Source: a phage. Taken from it: a DNA stretch of 64,000 nt. The notes under the pieces were generated by a model. The model saw only the letters and a list, made by a program, of their open reading frames with translations. It was not told where the DNA came from and made no database searches. The stretch is taken from sequence record PZ338878.1; one strand, written 5' to 3'. A program made the translations under genes and the position numbers. Below are positions 8,904 through 49,777 of this stretch, piece by piece. How positions within the stretch are numbered: position 1 is the stretch's first letter; each line of letters begins with the position of its first letter.

Positions 8904-9459
8904 TGTCTTCTCCTTTACCTGCCCTCCAGCCTAAATAGAAAGCCTCTCTGGTGATCTTTTGCAACTCGTTTAAAGAGATAGTTACAACTAAATTATCTTC
9001 AATTTCTAGCTTTGAGTCTTCTTCTGTCTCAATGCAAGTATTATGCACTTTGTGGTAAGGATTGTCAACACGTTTAAATTTATTATTTTCAGTGCTGAAG
9101 AAGCAATCTGGATCTTCTTCTCCATCACCCCAACCCTGGTTAGGGTCTTCTTCAGATCTTTCTGTTGGGATCTCACCTGTAAAGTGCTCTTCTAATACCA
9201 TAGCGATACCATCTCCAAGATCGGAAGAGAACATCAAATTACAAACTTCTTCCCAAGGCATAGACCACTTAAATCTTTTACGATTACCATGTTTATCTTC
9301 TTCGTTAGAGAAAACACTACCATAGCTATCATAATTGCCATACATCTCTTCAACAACTTTACCACCTTTCAAAAGAAATAGGTAGCAAGGAGAACCATCG
9401 AAAGAGGTAGAAAGAGCAGCATTGCCAGACTCTTTGCACAAGAAACTAAAACACCCCAT
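8896..9459 (-). CDS. hypothetical protein (187 aa, acidic)
   Basis: ORF track; no motif. Confidence 0.4.
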   Translation of the reverse strand: MGCFSFLCKESGNAALSTSFDGSPCYLFLLKGGKVVEEMYGNYDSYGSVFSNEEDKHGNRKRFKWSMPWEEVCNLMFSSDLGDGIAMVLEEHFTGEIPTERSEEDPNQGWGDGEEDPDCFFSTENNKFKRVDNPYHKVHNTCIETEEDSKLEIEDNLVVTISLNELQKITREAFYLGWRAGKGEDSA

Positions 9460-9659
9460 TATACACCAGCCTTAAGATCAATTAAAGCCAAAGTTGTTTC
9501 AGAATGTGTTTGCTCGTCTACAGGTGCAGTCATATGATAATACAAAAAGTCTTCGGCATCATACCAATCTGATTCTTGACCTTGTTTCCAACCATCAATG
9601 AAAGCATCCTCCATAATGGTTTGTAATTCTTCACGAGTTAAGTGAATATCTTTATTCAT
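9459..9659 (-). CDS. hypothetical protein (66 aa)
   Basis: ORF track; no motif. Confidence 0.35.
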   Translation of the reverse strand: MNKDIHLTREELQTIMEDAFIDGWKQGQESDWYDAEDFLYYHMTAPVDEQTHSETTLALIDLKAGV

Positions 9660-9865
9660 TACACATTCTCCTCTTTTACCAATTCCATCGTTGAACTATC
9701 AAAACCATCTTTAGAAGAATAGGTATAGACAGAACGTAGTTCTCGCAGGACAGTAAATACATTAGGATCATCTAACCAAGCATCCTGGAGGAGAACATAA
9801 CGATCTTCATTGTCATACTGGACAGCAATCATAGAACCAGACAGTTTGTAAATTTTAATATTCAT
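9659..9865 (-). CDS. hypothetical protein (68 aa)
   Basis: Track ORF 9659..9892 trimmed in frame to ATG at 9865, preceded by AAGGAG. Confidence 0.4.
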   Translation of the reverse strand: MNIKIYKLSGSMIAVQYDNEDRYVLLQDAWLDDPNVFTVLRELRSVYTYSSKDGFDSSTMELVKEENV

Positions 9866-9878
9866 AATATATTTCTCC

Positions 9879-10982
9879 TTAAAGTAGACCACGTTTAACA
9901 GTTTGAATCATACCATCTTCAAGAGATTGCACTTCTTGAATGTAATCAATACGAGCAGCACGGGCTTCAGTGTTGATTCGGTTAGTTTCTTCCAACATTT
10001 TAACTAAGTTTTCTTGATCGCGACGTAATGTTTCAATATCCAATACTTGACGATTAGCAAGTTGCGTAGCTTCAATTTGGTTTTGTGCAGCCAGATCACT
10101 ACCCATTGCAATAGCAGCATTAAATTCATTCAGTACATTGTTCTGTGTATCGGCTGCTTTCTTCTGGCGTAGACTTTCAATATACATAGAAAAGTTTGCA
10201 GAGTAAGCAGGAATAACATTATTCACAATATTACGGGCTGATCGCATCAAACTTGCAGATACTTTCTGCATACTTTGTACACGTGGCCCCATCTGAACAC
10301 ACAGTAAACGCAAGGCTTTCAGGTCTGCAATACGAATTTCAAGCAGATCCATAGTATCACGAGTACGTTGACGCTCTTCTACTTCATTTTCAGGTAGTGT
10401 ATTAAGGCGAACTTCTTCTTTTTCATAAGTAGCTGTTAGAAGCTCTATATCCCTGTTTAAGCTAAGAGCATATTTTGCAATAGCCTCTTCTAAACGTTGC
10501 AGATATCGTAAAGAATCTTCTTCTTTTTTCAAGTCTGTTTGGAGTGTCTTTACCAAACCTTCAATACGATTATTGATGGTGTCAAATTCACCAAACAAAT
10601 CTTCTTTCATACCTAATACTTTCTTAACTAGTTTACCTAAGCCTTTAGATTGTTTAATAGAATTAGGATCAAGTTGCTTTGCTTGCTTAATAAGTGCAGT
10701 TAAACGCTCACTCATTTCATCTCCCTGAGATGAACGCTGGTGTTTAAGCACTTCCGCATTAAGGTTACGAAGAGTAAGTCCTGCATCAGCACCAACCTGT
10801 TCAATCTCTTCACGAGACATTGGAGGCAGCATTTGTACAGGTCGTGCAACAGCAGGGGCATATACAGGGCTTGCATCCATAGCAGTTGGAGCAAACAAAG
10901 ACTTACTTTTTTCTGTTGTTGCCGTGAATACACTCATTTCAGACGGTTTGCTTTTTACGGCACTGATAAAAGGACTGGACAT
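9879..10982 (-). CDS. TelA-like protein (toxic-anion-resistance / KlaA family)
   Basis: 367 aa; long helical coiled-coil body and N-terminal region resembling TelA; call rests on overall pattern rather than one motif; SD GGAGGA. Confidence 0.5.
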   Translation of the reverse strand: MSSPFISAVKSKPSEMSVFTATTEKSKSLFAPTAMDASPVYAPAVARPVQMLPPMSREEIEQVGADAGLTLRNLNAEVLKHQRSSQGDEMSERLTALIKQAKQLDPNSIKQSKGLGKLVKKVLGMKEDLFGEFDTINNRIEGLVKTLQTDLKKEEDSLRYLQRLEEAIAKYALSLNRDIELLTATYEKEEVRLNTLPENEVEERQRTRDTMDLLEIRIADLKALRLLCVQMGPRVQSMQKVSASLMRSARNIVNNVIPAYSANFSMYIESLRQKKAADTQNNVLNEFNAAIAMGSDLAAQNQIEATQLANRQVLDIETLRRDQENLVKMLEETNRINTEARAARIDYIQEVQSLEDGMIQTVKRGLL

Positions 10983-36247: not shown

Positions 36248-36465
36248 TATTTTGAAAATTTTTATTTTTATAAAAAGGGGTGTGGGTTTCATGTACGGAA
36301 ATCCACCCTCTGAATAATATATCCAGAGTAAATATTATTCTGTACTCTGTTAATAAAGTATTTAATTTGTTTGTTGGACTATGGTATCTGATCTTTAAAA
36401 GACATACTATCTCTTAACTACTACTTATAACAGAACAGTAAAATCATTTTTATAAAAAGGACAAA

Positions 36466-36665
36466 ATTATTTAAAGTTTTTACAGATTTTTGGCTACAAA
36501 TTTTGAAAATGAAAAGTTCAAGTTTGGTCAAAATTATTTAAAGTTTTTGTATGTATTTCTATCCAGATTTTGAAAATGAAAACTTCAATTTTTTAAAAAT
36601 TCCCCAGTTTATTTAAAGTTTTTTTGCCTTTTTCCGTAGAAAAATCAAAAATGAAAAGTTCAATT
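36466..36665 (+). repeat. three tandem direct repeats of about 67-73 bp
   Basis: Each unit has ATTATTTAAAGTTTTT ... TTTGAAAATGAAAAGTTCAA; units start near 36466, 36533 and 36605. Confidence 0.7.
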
Positions 36666-36686
36666 TCGTGTTTTTATAGGTGTGTT

Positions 36687-36799
36687 AATGAGAATCATTT
36701 TCGTTTGTAAATGAGAATCATTATCATTTAACTATGTAAGTGATAATCATTCTCAGTAAGAGAATGAGAATCATTAGCAAATGAGAATTTTTCTCATTT
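36687..36799 (+). promoter_or_regulatory. cluster of five Fur-box-like palindromes (AATGAGAATCATT core)
   Basis: Copies at 36687-36699, 36710-36722, about 36741-36755 (GTGATAATCATTCTC), 36763-36775, and AATGAGAAtttTTCTCATT at 36779-36799. Confidence 0.5.
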
Positions 36800-37039
36800 A
36801 CAGAATAACGCGCAGGGGCGGTGTTTGTCTCGCGCTCCCGTGTCCCCTCGCCATACAATAAGAATAGCATAACCAACAACAAAAGCAAGCGATTATTTTT
36901 ATCTTTACATTTCTTTACAAATTTATTTTAGACGAGCTACCGGCGATCAACCTTCCAACCAGGGCCGCCTGGTATGTTAGCCCCGCCTTTACGCCGTGGG
37001 GGTGGCGTTTCCTCTTCTGTATGTAAAACAGTATAAGCC

Positions 37040-37085
37040 CGATCCCTGGGCTTGTCAATATTATTTTTTGTTTTCTTGCCAGGAT
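37040..37085 (+). terminator. possible bidirectional terminator-like hairpin
   Basis: aagccc-gatccct-gggctt followed by a T-rich run; lies just past the stop of the minus-strand ORF 37061..37327. Confidence 0.3.
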
Positions 37086-47045: not shown

Positions 47046-47429
47046 ATGAGCAATATCATCAACCTGGCGGCTACTGTAAACGGCAAAGACTTTAACGGCG
47101 CTGTAGACCGTGATCCTATGTGGTGCTTATCAGTGTTCAAAGGTGACTTGGTTGAAGTTAGAACAACCGAAGGTTATAGCGACGATTATAAATGCGAGAT
47201 CCATTTACATAACTGGTACACGGGTAAAACTTATGCGCTGAATCACGCGTTTATCGGGAAAATTGAATATCGCGAAATGATCGACGAAGAAACGGGGCAA
47301 GATTTTAGCGATTATGTTTATATTCGTTCCGAAACATTAGCCGAACGGTTGATCGAGAAAATGAAAGCAAAAAATAAAATTAATTTAGCTCATTGGCTTG
47401 ATATAACAAACGATCCAGCTTATAAGTAA
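47046..47429 (+). CDS. hypothetical protein (127 aa)
   Basis: Trimmed in frame to ATG 47046 (MSNIINLAA, GAGGAA upstream); the track start overlaps the promoter. Confidence 0.5.
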   Translation: MSNIINLAATVNGKDFNGAVDRDPMWCLSVFKGDLVEVRTTEGYSDDYKCEIHLHNWYTGKTYALNHAFIGKIEYREMIDEETGQDFSDYVYIRSETLAERLIEKMKAKNKINLAHWLDITNDPAYK

Positions 47430-47443
47430 ATAACATTTCACAC

Positions 47444-47472
47444 CAGGGCGCACAAAGCGCCCTTTCTTTTTA
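47444..47472 (+). terminator. intrinsic terminator ending the small-gene array
   Basis: agggcgc-acaaa-gcgccct hairpin followed by TTCTTTTT. Confidence 0.65.
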
Positions 47473-47676
47473 CCTAAATAAAGATGATAGCTTTTACCTA
47501 TCAAAAACGTTCACCGAAAAAAGTGAATAGATCGCGGTATCGAGCTAATCAAGGAGCAGATGAACAACCATACCATGAAGATCATAAGGCGTTTACAACG
47601 TGTTTTAGACCGCTTATTTTTAATTTCTCCATGTAACTATCTGGCAAAAACAGCCTTTTTCTTGTCTTTCCTCTTA

Positions 47677-47751
47677 AATGATAATCATTCTTATTTATAG
47701 CTGATTATTTATGCAATAAACTGCATAATGCAATAATGATAATCATTCTTA
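47677..47751 (+). promoter_or_regulatory. two copies of the palindrome AATGATAATCATT (Fur-box-like core) with identical flanks
   Basis: AATGATAATCATTCTTA at 47677-47693 and 47735-47751. Confidence 0.5.
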
Positions 47752-48110
47752 ACTTATGACCATCTAACCTATAAAATAATAAGCTATCTAACTAAATTAA
47801 AACTAATTATCTCACCTTTATTTATAATTTACTGTTATTATCTCATTGATAACCTTATATTAAACAACAATAACTAATATAAATCATTACTAAGCTAAAT
47901 ATAATCTATCTAACCTTTAAAACTATAACTATAATCTATCGAATTGTTGCACAAAGTAACTATTAAATTGTTAGTAACATTACTAAATAATTAATATCCT
48001 ATCTATTTATGATCTAATCTTTACCTTACTATCTATTACCTAAATAATCATTTCATACCGTAATAATTTCATATAATAATTATAACAAGAAATATAATTA
48101 GCAAGCGTAT

Positions 48111-48290
48111 CATTAGCAGCCTATGCCGGACACATAGGCGGCTAATAATAACGCAACTACACACCTCACATAATAACTATCACCGATAGTTATTATCTGT
48201 GCTTATGTAGCTTGCAACAATTGCAAGCGCAACAATATACATGGTATATTGTATTCCCTTACATTGTTGCGGTGCGTTATTATTAGCTAA
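48111..48290 (+). repeat. nested inverted repeats / palindromes in AT-rich non-coding region
   Basis: Perfect 15-bp arms GCTAATAATAACGCA (48141-48155) and TGCGTTATTATTAGC (48273-48287); palindromes ttagcagcctatg...cataggcggctaa, ataactatc-acc-gatagttat, cttgcaa-caa-ttgcaag. Confidence 0.6.
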
Positions 48291-48662
48291 TGTTTGGAAC
48301 ATTGGCTATAATATAAGCTACCCAATAATAAGTTATGCAATAATAAACATAGTGAATAATTACCCTGATGATCATAATGCGCCACCTTCCAGGGGCGCTA
48401 TGTGAACACAAAGAAATCTTTCTTGTCAAGAAAAATATTACCATTATTGCGCAAAATTATTTATATATGAATAGACGGTTTTTCATACTATTGCCCCCCC
48501 CAAATTATGCCCCTTTTGTTGGGTACAACTATCCCTATTTGTTGCAATGTATACCTTATTTGTTGAGCATAGTTATAGCCTATTTGTTGAGCCTACTTTC
48601 TTAAAAGCGCAATAAATTAGAATTATCTTGATTTTTAGGGCGTTTTATAGTATAGAAAATAT

Positions 48663-48681
48663 GCAAATGATAATCATTATC
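48663..48681 (+). promoter_or_regulatory. Fur-box-like site (17 of 19 matches to GATAATGATAATCATTATC as recalled)
   Basis: gcAAATGATAATCATTATC read directly; further degenerate copies at about 48848-48878. Confidence 0.5.
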
Positions 48682-48933
48682 AGCTATCTTCCACGGGTAG
48701 CACTATTTCACGCAGGATCATTTCATTTGGCAAGGTGTATATAGATGTTTAGAAATGCCAAGCCATTGATTTGCTTAGAATTTATCTGTTTTGTTGGGAA
48801 TAGTGCCTTTATTGTCCAGAAAATAATCAAAAGTCTTATAAGTCATTGAATGATAATGCAAATGATAATAATTCTCATTGATATTTGAGGGGGACGGTCG
48901 GCAGAAATCGGGGGGCGCTGAAAATCGCGTTAA

Positions 48934-49000
48934 NNNNNNNNNNNNNNNNNNNNNNNNNNNNNNNNNNNNNNNNNNNNNNNNNNNNNNNNNNNNNNNNNNN
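48934..49000. other. 67-nt run of N (assembly gap or masked sequence)
   Basis: Literal n characters; flanks are GC-rich (gggggacggtcggcag / agggggtgtgtcg) unlike the surrounding AT-rich DNA. Confidence 0.95.
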
Positions 49001-49318
49001 AGGGGGTGTGTCGAAATAAATCGGGTATACCGGAAAATTTTTGTGGCATAGATATTTATTTGTCTATATTATGTACAAAGGGGTGTGTTAAAAATAATAG
49101 GTATATATAGAATAATTGATAGGGAAATCCTATACTAAATCCTTCATTAATGATGTTTCTATGTGGCTGTCCTTGTAACAGATGAAAAGACGCTGTATGA
49201 TGTGTGAAAGACAGAATCAAAGATGCAAATAATACTTGCATTGAATAGAAATGTCTGTACACTGTGTTCCATATAATATGCAATACCGCGCATAACAAAC
49301 TACTAATGAGAGGTGTAA

Positions 49319-49777
49319 ATGAAAACTGTATCTTTGTATCTTGCTAACACGGAGCGTGTACATAATCTGGTAAAAGAATGCGGTGTGAGTGTTCAATTTA
49401 ACACAGGAAAGCCTTCCGTGGTGACAGGCAGCGAGATGTGTGTTATTGATTTCATCAATGAATATTTTCGTGGAAAACCTATCGCTCGGCACTTCATTCA
49501 AGAAATGCGAGATGTAGAGCAGGATTATGAATTCTACCCAGAAATTTGTGAACGTTATGAAACAATTCTTAGTTCTGTAGAAGATCCAGATACTAGTGAA
49601 ACAGGTGCTTCCCACTTACTGTGGATGTTGAGTGAAATTCAGGATGGGTGTAATGGTATGTCTGAAACCAAACGCCATCGTTGGTTAGGCTATATTCAGG
49701 GTGTTATGGTTATGAAAAACCTTATTACAGTGAACGATGAACGTAATGCTACACGCCCCGTCTTTAATGGAGCATAA
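49319..49777 (+). CDS. hypothetical protein (152 aa)
   Basis: ORF track; SD GAGAGGTG. Confidence 0.45.
   Translation: MKTVSLYLANTERVHNLVKECGVSVQFNTGKPSVVTGSEMCVIDFINEYFRGKPIARHFIQEMRDVEQDYEFYPEICERYETILSSVEDPDTSETGASHLLWMLSEIQDGCNGMSETKRHRWLGYIQGVMVMKNLITVNDERNATRPVFNGA

Follow-up and report, generated by a model that had tools for sequence, protein, structure and literature searches.

Why would a virulent phage carry, on both sides of a block of small genes, palindromes that look like binding sites for Fur, a global regulator of its host? The question arises from sequence record PZ338878.1, of which a 64,000-nucleotide stretch (the window) was analyzed, and from two noncoding regions within it. 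One holds the Fur-like sites that we call boxes A to D, between positions 47674 and 48882; the other holds a tandem group, cluster U, at 36684 to 36801. Megablast with 47400 to 48930 returned 67 phage records, nearly all of them Justusliebigvirus with 90 to 97% identity, which identifies the source as a phi92-like myophage of the Stephanstirmvirinae. Judging from sequence comparisons, we conclude that the boxes are quite probably selected sites of the Fur type and that Fur itself is their likely ligand. Tentatively, and with a confidence that stops short of even, we propose that the boxes may be selected docking sites for host Fur that belong to the chromosome-end (packaging or termini) region, and not promoter operators.

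Candidate sites were scored by their match to the 19-bp Fur consensus GATAATGATAATCATTATC, as given by Deng et al. 2015, with dinucleotide shuffles as a control and with direct comparison to E. coli operators. Box A (TTAAATGATAATCATTCTT, 47674 to 47692) matches the consensus at 14 of 19 positions and contains a perfect 6-1-6 core at 47677 to 47689, while box B (AATAATGATAATCATTCTT, 47732 to 47750) matches at 16 of 19. Box C (GCAAATGATAATCATTATC, 48663 to 48681) also has a perfect 7-1-7 palindrome, TGATAATCATTATCA (14/14), at 48668 to 48682. Box D consists of overlapping boxes (GATAATGCAAATGATAATAATTCTCATTGAT, 48852 to 48882; 14, 15, and 14 of 19, the best being 15/19) and includes the 7-1-7 element TGATAATAATTCTCA, which fits at 13 of 14 positions (48863 to 48877). 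An earlier sequence-only reading of this DNA had placed the word AATGATAATCATTCTTA at 47677 to 47693 and again at 47735 to 47751, had scored box C at 17 of 19 against GATAATGATAATCATTATC, and had noted degenerate copies near 48848 to 48878; both positions and the score were verified, and the degenerate copies are the overlapping boxes of D. Cluster U, which forms the 5′ border of the small-gene array, comprises five to six tandem Fur-like boxes (GTTAATGAGAATCATTTTC, GTAAATGAGAATCATTATC, GTAAGTGATAATCATTCTC, GAGAATGAGAATCATTAGC, and AAATGAGAATTTTTCTCATTT), with scores of 16, 16, 15, and 16 of 19.

A trivial explanation for such a collection could be the base composition of the DNA. That reading had already argued against chance, from the presence of the same palindrome in both noncoding regions that flank the small-gene array, and the counts bear it out. 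With up to one mismatch allowed, the window holds 12 copies of the 13-mer core AATGATAATCATT, where dinucleotide shuffles predict 0.37, and all 12 fall within 36687 to 36775 or 47677 to 48873. The excess survives local dinucleotide shuffling: the interval 47640 to 48933 (69% A+T) has seven matches of at least 14/19 against 0.31 expected and two of at least 16/19 against 0.004, counts that were reached in 0 of 2000 shuffles, and the upstream region 36250 to 36910 has six matches against 0.07. A motif-free count of 8-mers in noncoding DNA likewise ranked pieces of the palindrome (AATGAGAA, ATGAGAAT, GATAATCA, AATGATAA, and ATGATAAT) among the most enriched words. In the roughly 100 kb of phi92 outside 50 to 100 kb, strong boxes occur only at the two homologous regions and in the second copy of the terminal repeat described below.

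The sites resemble proven Fur boxes in detail. Boxes A to D all reach the level of proven sites for either the 19-bp form GATAATGATAATCATTATC or the 7-1-7 form TGATAATnATTATCA. By blastn, box C is identical over 19 nt to the site upstream of iroB on a virulence plasmid, and it shares 24 of 26 positions with the fepB-entC operator, 31 to 54 nt before entC; that operator is the one intergenic match to the 36 nt around box C in 5406 of 5426 complete E. coli genomes (blastn). The predicted quality of the sites that the sequence-only reading had flagged as Fur box-like thus equals that of the best natural operators (box C, 19/19 at iroB and 24/26 at entC). The entC site at that coordinate has been footprinted and carries 23.1 bits (Chen et al., PMC2189734). 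In crystal structures of Fur with DNA, Arg57 reads a guanine and a 19-bp box holds two dimers (PMC4506495). The features that Fur reads, which also include the flanking thymines and a narrow, A/T-rich minor groove, are present here: the pattern AATGAtAATCATT keeps the G and the symmetric C in boxes A, B, and C and in all U boxes, and box D has a right half, AATAATT, without the C. The repeat of cluster U, AATGAGAATCATT, we take to be the core of the aerobactin (iucA) operator. Box C, with its perfect 7-1-7 TGATAATCATTATCA, and the overlapping boxes, offset by 6 bp, are like the entC and iroB operators (consensus GATAATGATAATCATTATC); unlike those operators, box C lies off any -35/-10 promoter, in the terminal repeat of a virulent phage, and with no iron-related gene nearby.

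Boxes A to D also sit at the end of the phage chromosome. In phi92, UAB_1, and BME3, the megablast match to 47400 to 48930 reaches the very end of the record. The annotation of phi92 gives a 343-bp direct terminal repeat (DTR), with DTR-L at 1 to 343 and DTR-R at 148270 to 148612, and a DTR of 342 bp was reported independently for BME3. By blastn and reading of the sequence, the DTR maps to 48590 to 48932 of the window, the first bases of phi92, AGCCTACTTTCTTAAAAGCG, matching from 48590 onward and the last, ...AAAATCGCGTTA, ending at 48932. phi92 has two copies and the window one, so the window derives from an assembly that collapsed the repeat copies. The box region is a noncoding stretch of about 1.6 kb that spans the physical genome terminus: to its left are the last genes of the right-terminal small-gene array, where the homolog of phi92 gp248 ends at 47429, and to its right the gp001 homolog occupies 49319 to 49777. 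Boxes C and D lie within the DTR, and boxes A and B lie about 0.85 to 0.9 kb upstream of it. Counting inward from the left DTR boundary, the 19-mer of box C starts at 73 bp and its 7-1-7 core at 78 bp, and 55 bp separate the 7-1-7 core of box D from the right boundary.

Conservation in relatives, which the earlier reading had named as a test, is evident at several depths: the boxes are kept in related phages. In an alignment of ten Justusliebigvirus genomes, 82 of the 88 columns within boxes do not vary, compared with 1079 of the 1336 noncoding columns outside them (Fisher p = 0.0026); box C is invariant in 18 of 19 columns and box D in 30 of 31 across 10 relatives. A cross-genus alignment was built with Phapecoctavirus (phiWec190 and tuntematon), Klebsiella phage KP2025, and Citrobacter phage Tr1, in which the flanks retain about 50 to 60% identity. 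There, boxes A, B, C, and D stand out as conserved islands at homologous positions amid diverged flanks, and box D of Phapecoctavirus phiWec190 matches the consensus at 17 of 19 positions. The deviations from the Fur consensus fall on different bases in each lineage (box A reads TGATAATCATTCTTA in the window and TGATAACCATTATCA in Phapecoctavirus), a pattern expected if the maintained optimum is the Fur consensus itself. Each distant lineage is enriched on its own, with three to seven matches of at least 14/19 against 0.15 to 0.31 expected. Cluster U is kept in Phapecoctavirus (tuntematon) at the same border of the early array. In a Certrevirus (of another subfamily, Vequintavirinae), a cluster of GATAATGATTCTCAT-type boxes occupies a noncoding region of about 50% G+C, and one Fur-like box is preceded by TGCATAATGC, as is box B.

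By calling the palindrome operator-like, the sequence-only reading implied a role over a promoter, and this part did not stand: in two sigma-70 scans, no promoter overlaps any box. The whole-window scan found about 20 strong TTGACA-N16/17-TAnnnT promoters in the small-gene array, at 37.8 to 47 kb and all on the plus strand. They are near consensus, with a perfect TTGACA and a spacer of 16 to 17 nt, number roughly one per small gene, and fit the host-polymerase promoters reported for rV5. The array is a dense early module driven by host polymerase, and it makes up the right-terminal 11.6 kb of the genome. The same scan found no sigma-70 promoter scoring at least 9.5 in 36250 to 36910 or in 47440 to 49170. 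In the second scan, promoter-like sites in the box region were not in excess (17 against 12.7 expected), and the only overlap with a box core was a 9/12 minus-strand match at box D. With no overlapping sigma-70 promoter, a classical operator role is not supported, and the candidate of an operator over a promoter was rejected because no credible promoter lies at the boxes. A conserved promoter-like site on the plus strand, TTGTAA-17-TATGAT (TATAAT in phage inny), lies at 49173 to 49201, upstream of the gp001 homolog and about 300 bp from box D, the nearest box. No iron-related or DNA-binding function was found among the flanking genes, which encode only families of no known function and one NADAR domain. 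Separately, a strong minus-strand promoter, TTGACA-17-TATACT, at 37058 to 37030 is directed towards cluster U.

Outside the phi92-like phages, one counterpart is the injection-stop region (iss) of T5 (NC_005859), annotated at 9140 to 10149. It contains tandem AAATGAGAATCATT units at 9552 to 9725, directly after DnaA boxes, and has four matches of at least 14/19 against 0.05 expected. The T5 array and box U2 of cluster U share 22 identical nucleotides, and the longest word that boxes A to D share with T5 is 11 nt. Between the array and the inner edge of the terminal repeat there is about 0.4 to 0.7 kb, and the right physical end is therefore equally far away; another box, scoring 16/19, is found 228 bp in from the left end (228 to 252). 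The calculated shear point of first-step transfer, at 7.9% of the T5 genome, falls within these repeats in a preprint that never mentions Fur (Davison, 10.1101/866236). In phi92, cluster U is at 136988 to 137083, 7.8% of the genome from the right end. As in T5 iss, the phi92-like phages have a large conserved noncoding region with tandem AAATGAGAATCATT-type units in or next to a terminal repeat, the strongest identity being in cluster U, and in both cases it borders an early-gene module transcribed towards the terminus. Unlike the T5 terminal repeat of 10 kb, the repeat here is 343 bp. In T5, moreover, eight DnaA boxes accompany the iss repeats and A1 and A2 are required, and neither feature was found here: paired DnaA boxes (TTWTNCACA) in inverted repeats are absent from both noncoding regions, and tblastn with the pre-early A1 and A2, with dmp, and with their neighbors gave only chance-level matches (E of at least 0.58) in the window and in the roughly 100 kb of phi92 outside its middle 50 kb.

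A second counterpart lies at the cohesive end of lambda (NC_001416), where a perfect TGATAATCATTATCA occurs at 48452 to 48466, 36 bp from the right end and 6 nt before GGGTCCT, which is presumably cosQ. The same lambda sequence, TGATAATCATTATCA followed by GGGCGGCGACCT, recurs upstream of nohA, a Nu1 homolog in the Qin prophage of E. coli K-12. The nohA site was selected in vivo by Fur titration (FURTA), was gel-shifted, and carries 22.3 bits; its DLP12 counterpart, nohB, carries 25.3 bits (Chen et al., PMC2189734). Like the lambda, nohA, and nohB site, box C has the same perfect 15-mer tens of base pairs from a physical end or terminase cut, and the short distance to the end (within about 100 bp) holds for box C at 78 bp and box D at 55 bp as it does for lambda at 36 bp. 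The lambda order of box, GGGTCCT-like element, cosN, and small and large terminase genes was not found: neither a cosN nor a GGGTCCT is present here, and the genes after the DTR are small genes of no known function. The ends of lambda are cohesive, with a single box immediately before the terminase genes, whereas here there are a 343-bp direct repeat, several boxes, and terminase encoded elsewhere.

How widely such boxes accompany phage ends was gauged in IMG/VR with a sample of at least 120 loci, selected by one exact 17-mer, AATGATAATCATTATCA; the figures that follow hold among the matches listed. T5-like or phi92-like phages account for 4 of the 120 loci, lambda-type cos regions form the largest class, and multiple boxes occur at many loci. 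Among diverged lambda-like cos regions, box, GGGTCCT-like element, and cosN follow one another in constant order, while the upstream flank and the orientation of the box vary. With ten PHROGs-verified large terminase (TerL) genes as tblastn queries, TerL was detected in 42 of the 120 loci, and a box lies upstream of it in 38 of these 42. After collapse to 21 DNA families, a box is upstream of TerL in 17 and not in 4 (p = 0.0036), mostly at a distance of 0.45 to 2.1 kb. Boxes also cluster near contig ends: 15 of 120 are no more than 300 bp away from one, about three times the 4.6 expected. One of the loci is Salmonella phage SP01 (L030), which is T5-like and has its array in the terminal repeat, and in two others (L021 and L034) five boxes fall within 230 bp of DNA with 53% G+C.

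Two contigs of this sample deserve separate description. In IMGVR_UViG_3300033068_002045 (L086, 10762 to 11325), which is distantly related to Acinetobacter siphophages, the contig ends in an array of at least 14 boxes, three of them perfect at 19/19; the array adjoins GGTGCTAAGTCCCAGG iterons and has the large terminase gene about 2 kb downstream. In IMGVR_UViG_2222084004_000002 (L073, 1195 to 1471), Fur boxes flank four DnaA boxes (TGTGGATAA), a pairing like that in T5 iss.

These comparisons suggest what docking of Fur at a chromosome end might achieve. Holo-Fur, which is abundant and binds as pairs of dimers, would occupy the boxes on replicated concatemers; boxes C and D would then place it just inside both DTR boundaries, where terminase must cut. 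Bound there, it might serve as an architectural cofactor, or as a "speed bump" or roadblock, that aids terminase in recognizing and cutting the repeat boundaries, and it could thereby couple phage maturation to the iron state of the cell. Boxes A and B would stand 0.85 to 0.9 kb upstream of the DTR, and the U array would mark the other border of the terminal early-gene module. Such a role would be akin to that of the integration host factor IHF at lambda cosB, whose I1 site is likewise a site for a host DNA-binding protein within a packaging site near the cut; the analogy is functional only, as the protein and the motif differ and IHF does not sense metabolism. In lambda, cosQ mutants are suppressed when packaging is slowed, an effect that would be consistent with a roadblock just ahead of the termination cut. 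That the step affected is terminus processing or packaging is a speculative proposal that we hold with less than even confidence. More broadly, and with slightly greater reserve, Fur boxes might be a widespread and hitherto unrecognized component of phage chromosome ends, at which host Fe2+-Fur would act as a cofactor or iron checkpoint for a DNA-end transaction and thereby link phage maturation or establishment to host iron. This would take in lambda-like cos regions (beside the GGGTCCT element), T5-like terminal repeats and iss, phi92- and rV5-like DTRs and their surroundings, and the DNA upstream of terminase genes in other phages of Proteobacteria, and the transaction could be the terminase cut at the start or end of packaging or the handling of the first DNA to enter the cell.

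Several points weigh against a role in cutting the ends. A cutting cofactor does not account for boxes A and B and still less for cluster U, which is 11.6 kb away from the end, and the terminase genes of phi92-like phages do not lie beside the DTR as they do in the other examples. To our knowledge, a Fur requirement has never been reported in the literature on lambda packaging, and the minimal cos site may not include the lambda box. The IMG/VR sample rests on one exact 17-mer and on the matches listed, and its enrichment at contig ends could partly come from assemblies that break at tandem repeats. Finally, Fur-like A+T-rich palindromes could be read by another protein.

That last point leads to a rival in which the boxes are sites for a phage-encoded DNA-binding protein, such as an early repressor or small terminase, whose palindrome resembles or mimics a Fur box. 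Shared flanks that extend beyond the Fur consensus (TGCAAAT before boxes B, C, and D and ATTCTC in right halves) would suit such a protein, as would the many local genes of no known function and the fact that repeated sites near termini are typical of terminase recognition. We give it a low probability, since the motif is common to T5-like, lambda-like, and many unrelated phages with no evident protein in common, which favors a common host ligand, since the deviations across lineages scatter around the Fur consensus itself, and since the lambda/nohA copy is bound by Fur experimentally. Host Fur is our candidate ligand for the same reasons: a shared host protein would explain the motif in unrelated phages, and the nohA copy binds Fur. 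With Fur as the ligand, the boxes could still be iron-responsive operators, at which Fe2+-Fur represses or roadblocks transcription that starts in or crosses the noncoding regions, so that the flanking early arrays or a noncoding RNA (for example, the element at 48119 to 48287) would follow host iron status. The quality of the boxes is that of real operators, both clusters are 5′ of plus-strand gene arrays and 3′ of other transcription units, and a weak extended -10, TGcAATAAT (47729 to 47737; TATAAT in Phapecoctavirus), overlaps box B. Set against the roughly 20 promoters of the array between them, however, neither region has one scoring at least 9.5; promoter-like sites are not in excess, and the only conserved one, at gp001, comes no closer than some 300 bp to any box; none of the flanking genes has an iron-related function; and the T5 and lambda counterparts lie away from known promoters. 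An operator role of this kind therefore seems unlikely to us.

A boundary of first-step transfer like that of T5 would give the arrays another task, which is to stop or delimit DNA entry after the right-terminal 11.6 kb (7.8%) has entered first. The tandem AAATGAGAATCATT units right after the DnaA boxes of T5 iss, the near coincidence of the 7.9% shear point given in the preprint with the 7.8% position of phi92 cluster U, the transcription of the T5 pre-early genes likewise towards the entering end, and the large, conserved, repeat-rich, and noncoding nature of both regions all speak for it. It is nevertheless doubtful, given that the phi92-like noncoding regions lack DnaA boxes, that no A1, A2, or dmp homologs were found in the window and about 100 kb of phi92, that a cytoplasmic protein is not obviously able to stop DNA entry, and that boxes A to D are at the terminus and not at the 7.8% boundary. 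The number of boxes, 11 to 14 per genome multiplied by replication, raises the further idea of a Fur sponge, in which Fur would be titrated away and the host regulon for iron uptake and iron sparing thereby relieved of repression, to the advantage of the phage. The Fur titration assay shows that boxes in many copies can have this effect, and tandem arrays of strong sites (cluster U and the L086 array of at least 14 boxes, three of them 19/19) look like titration devices. A sponge would not need box positions that are kept relative to cis elements and repeat boundaries, and the lone box at lambda cos is not enough for titration of Fur. In T5 infection, host DNA is degraded within minutes (Davison preprint, 10.1101/866236), so that derepression there would be pointless; we regard a sponge as improbable. 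Least probable by far is that the boxes have no function and are A+T-rich products of local duplication that resemble Fur boxes by chance. The region is indeed 69% A+T and rich in repeats, but the enrichment survives local dinucleotide shuffles, and in other genera and subfamilies the boxes persist as islands between diverged flanks.

If docking of Fur at chromosome ends is correct, a protein known as a repressor of iron uptake would have a new job in a structural or checkpoint role at the ends of virus chromosomes. Phages, among them phi92-like and T5-like therapy candidates that act in iron-poor body sites, would depend on their hosts in a new way, and the idea would bear on two old puzzles, namely, the ligand of the T5 injection-stop repeats and a host factor beside IHF at lambda-type cos. 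On a minimal reading, every infecting and replicated genome carries predicted high-affinity sites for a global regulator, and the predicted Fur sites in the DTR would be relevant to iron-dependent infection phenotypes. Fur boxes and the nohA site are already known. A limited literature search found no paper that links Fur with phi92-like, rV5-like, or T5-like phages, with first-step transfer, or with cosQ, and no expression or infection results for phi92-like phages in fur or iron-limited hosts; nor did the literature searched describe conserved boxes in the DTR region of phi92- and rV5-like phages, the identity of such boxes with the T5 iss repeats, or a general link between Fur boxes and phage DNA ends.

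The boxes share their noncoding regions with other cis elements. Between boxes A and B, an inverted repeat, TTATGCA-N6-TGCATAA (47709 to 47728), is kept in all genera compared, and a second factor may bind it; the Certrevirus noncoding region likewise contains TGCATAA-type words. Between boxes B and C, a conserved, strongly structured, cloverleaf-like element at 48119 to 48287 folds with -72.2 kcal/mol (z = -7.2); it has a hairpin, GCCTATG-N7-CATAGGC, and a 15-bp closing stem around three hairpins. Compensatory changes occur in 10 of its 42 pairs across genera, and a 124-bp island is found by blastn in Phapecoctavirus. No tRNA or Rfam family was found in the region, this element included, which could be a noncoding RNA or a structure of the DNA for origin function or packaging. 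On the plus strand, three CCTATTTGTTG iterons (48534 to 48589) end exactly at the left DTR boundary. Companion sites for DnaA or IHF, as in T5, were considered and set aside: the window has 14 matches to the DnaA box, none of them in either noncoding region, and no match to the IHF consensus lies at the boxes, the sole match in the scanned noncoding regions being at 48759, between boxes C and D.

The surroundings of the DTR show further regularities. Both DTR boundaries read GTTR|AGC (TGTTG|AGCC and CGTTA|AGCA in relatives; 48926 to 48936 at the right), which may be the context of the terminase cut. A masked run of 67 N (48934 to 49000) begins 2 nt past the end of the DTR; at this position, relatives have ordinary sequence, GCACCTCTCGCAAGCGAGCAGT...TTGATATTATTGAC..., without a Fur-like box. 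Direct repeats of the GGGGTGTGT(C/T) type, kept in relatives, lie just past the DTR at 49003 to 49024 and 49080 to 49101, and a related word, GGGGGACGGTCGG, occurs within it at 48890. Around cluster U, three repeats of about 60 bp (ATTTTGAAAATGAAAAGTTCAA...AAATTATTTAAAGTTTTT) are found upstream, at 36440 to 36660, and a G+C-rich element that is kept in Phapecoctavirus is found downstream, at 36810 to 36850.

The small-gene array is closed by a predicted intrinsic terminator on the plus strand (47445 to 47463), whose stem is kept across genera. Of the last two genes of the array, the first encodes a T4 30.8-like protein with about 1000 T-even records, and the second is found in 28 records, rV5 not being among them. 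Under the label "Campylobacter phage" (A145, A110a, A150, and C3), GenBank has four to five records that are about 94% identical to this phi92-like region; their host label is probably wrong, or they are contaminant phages.

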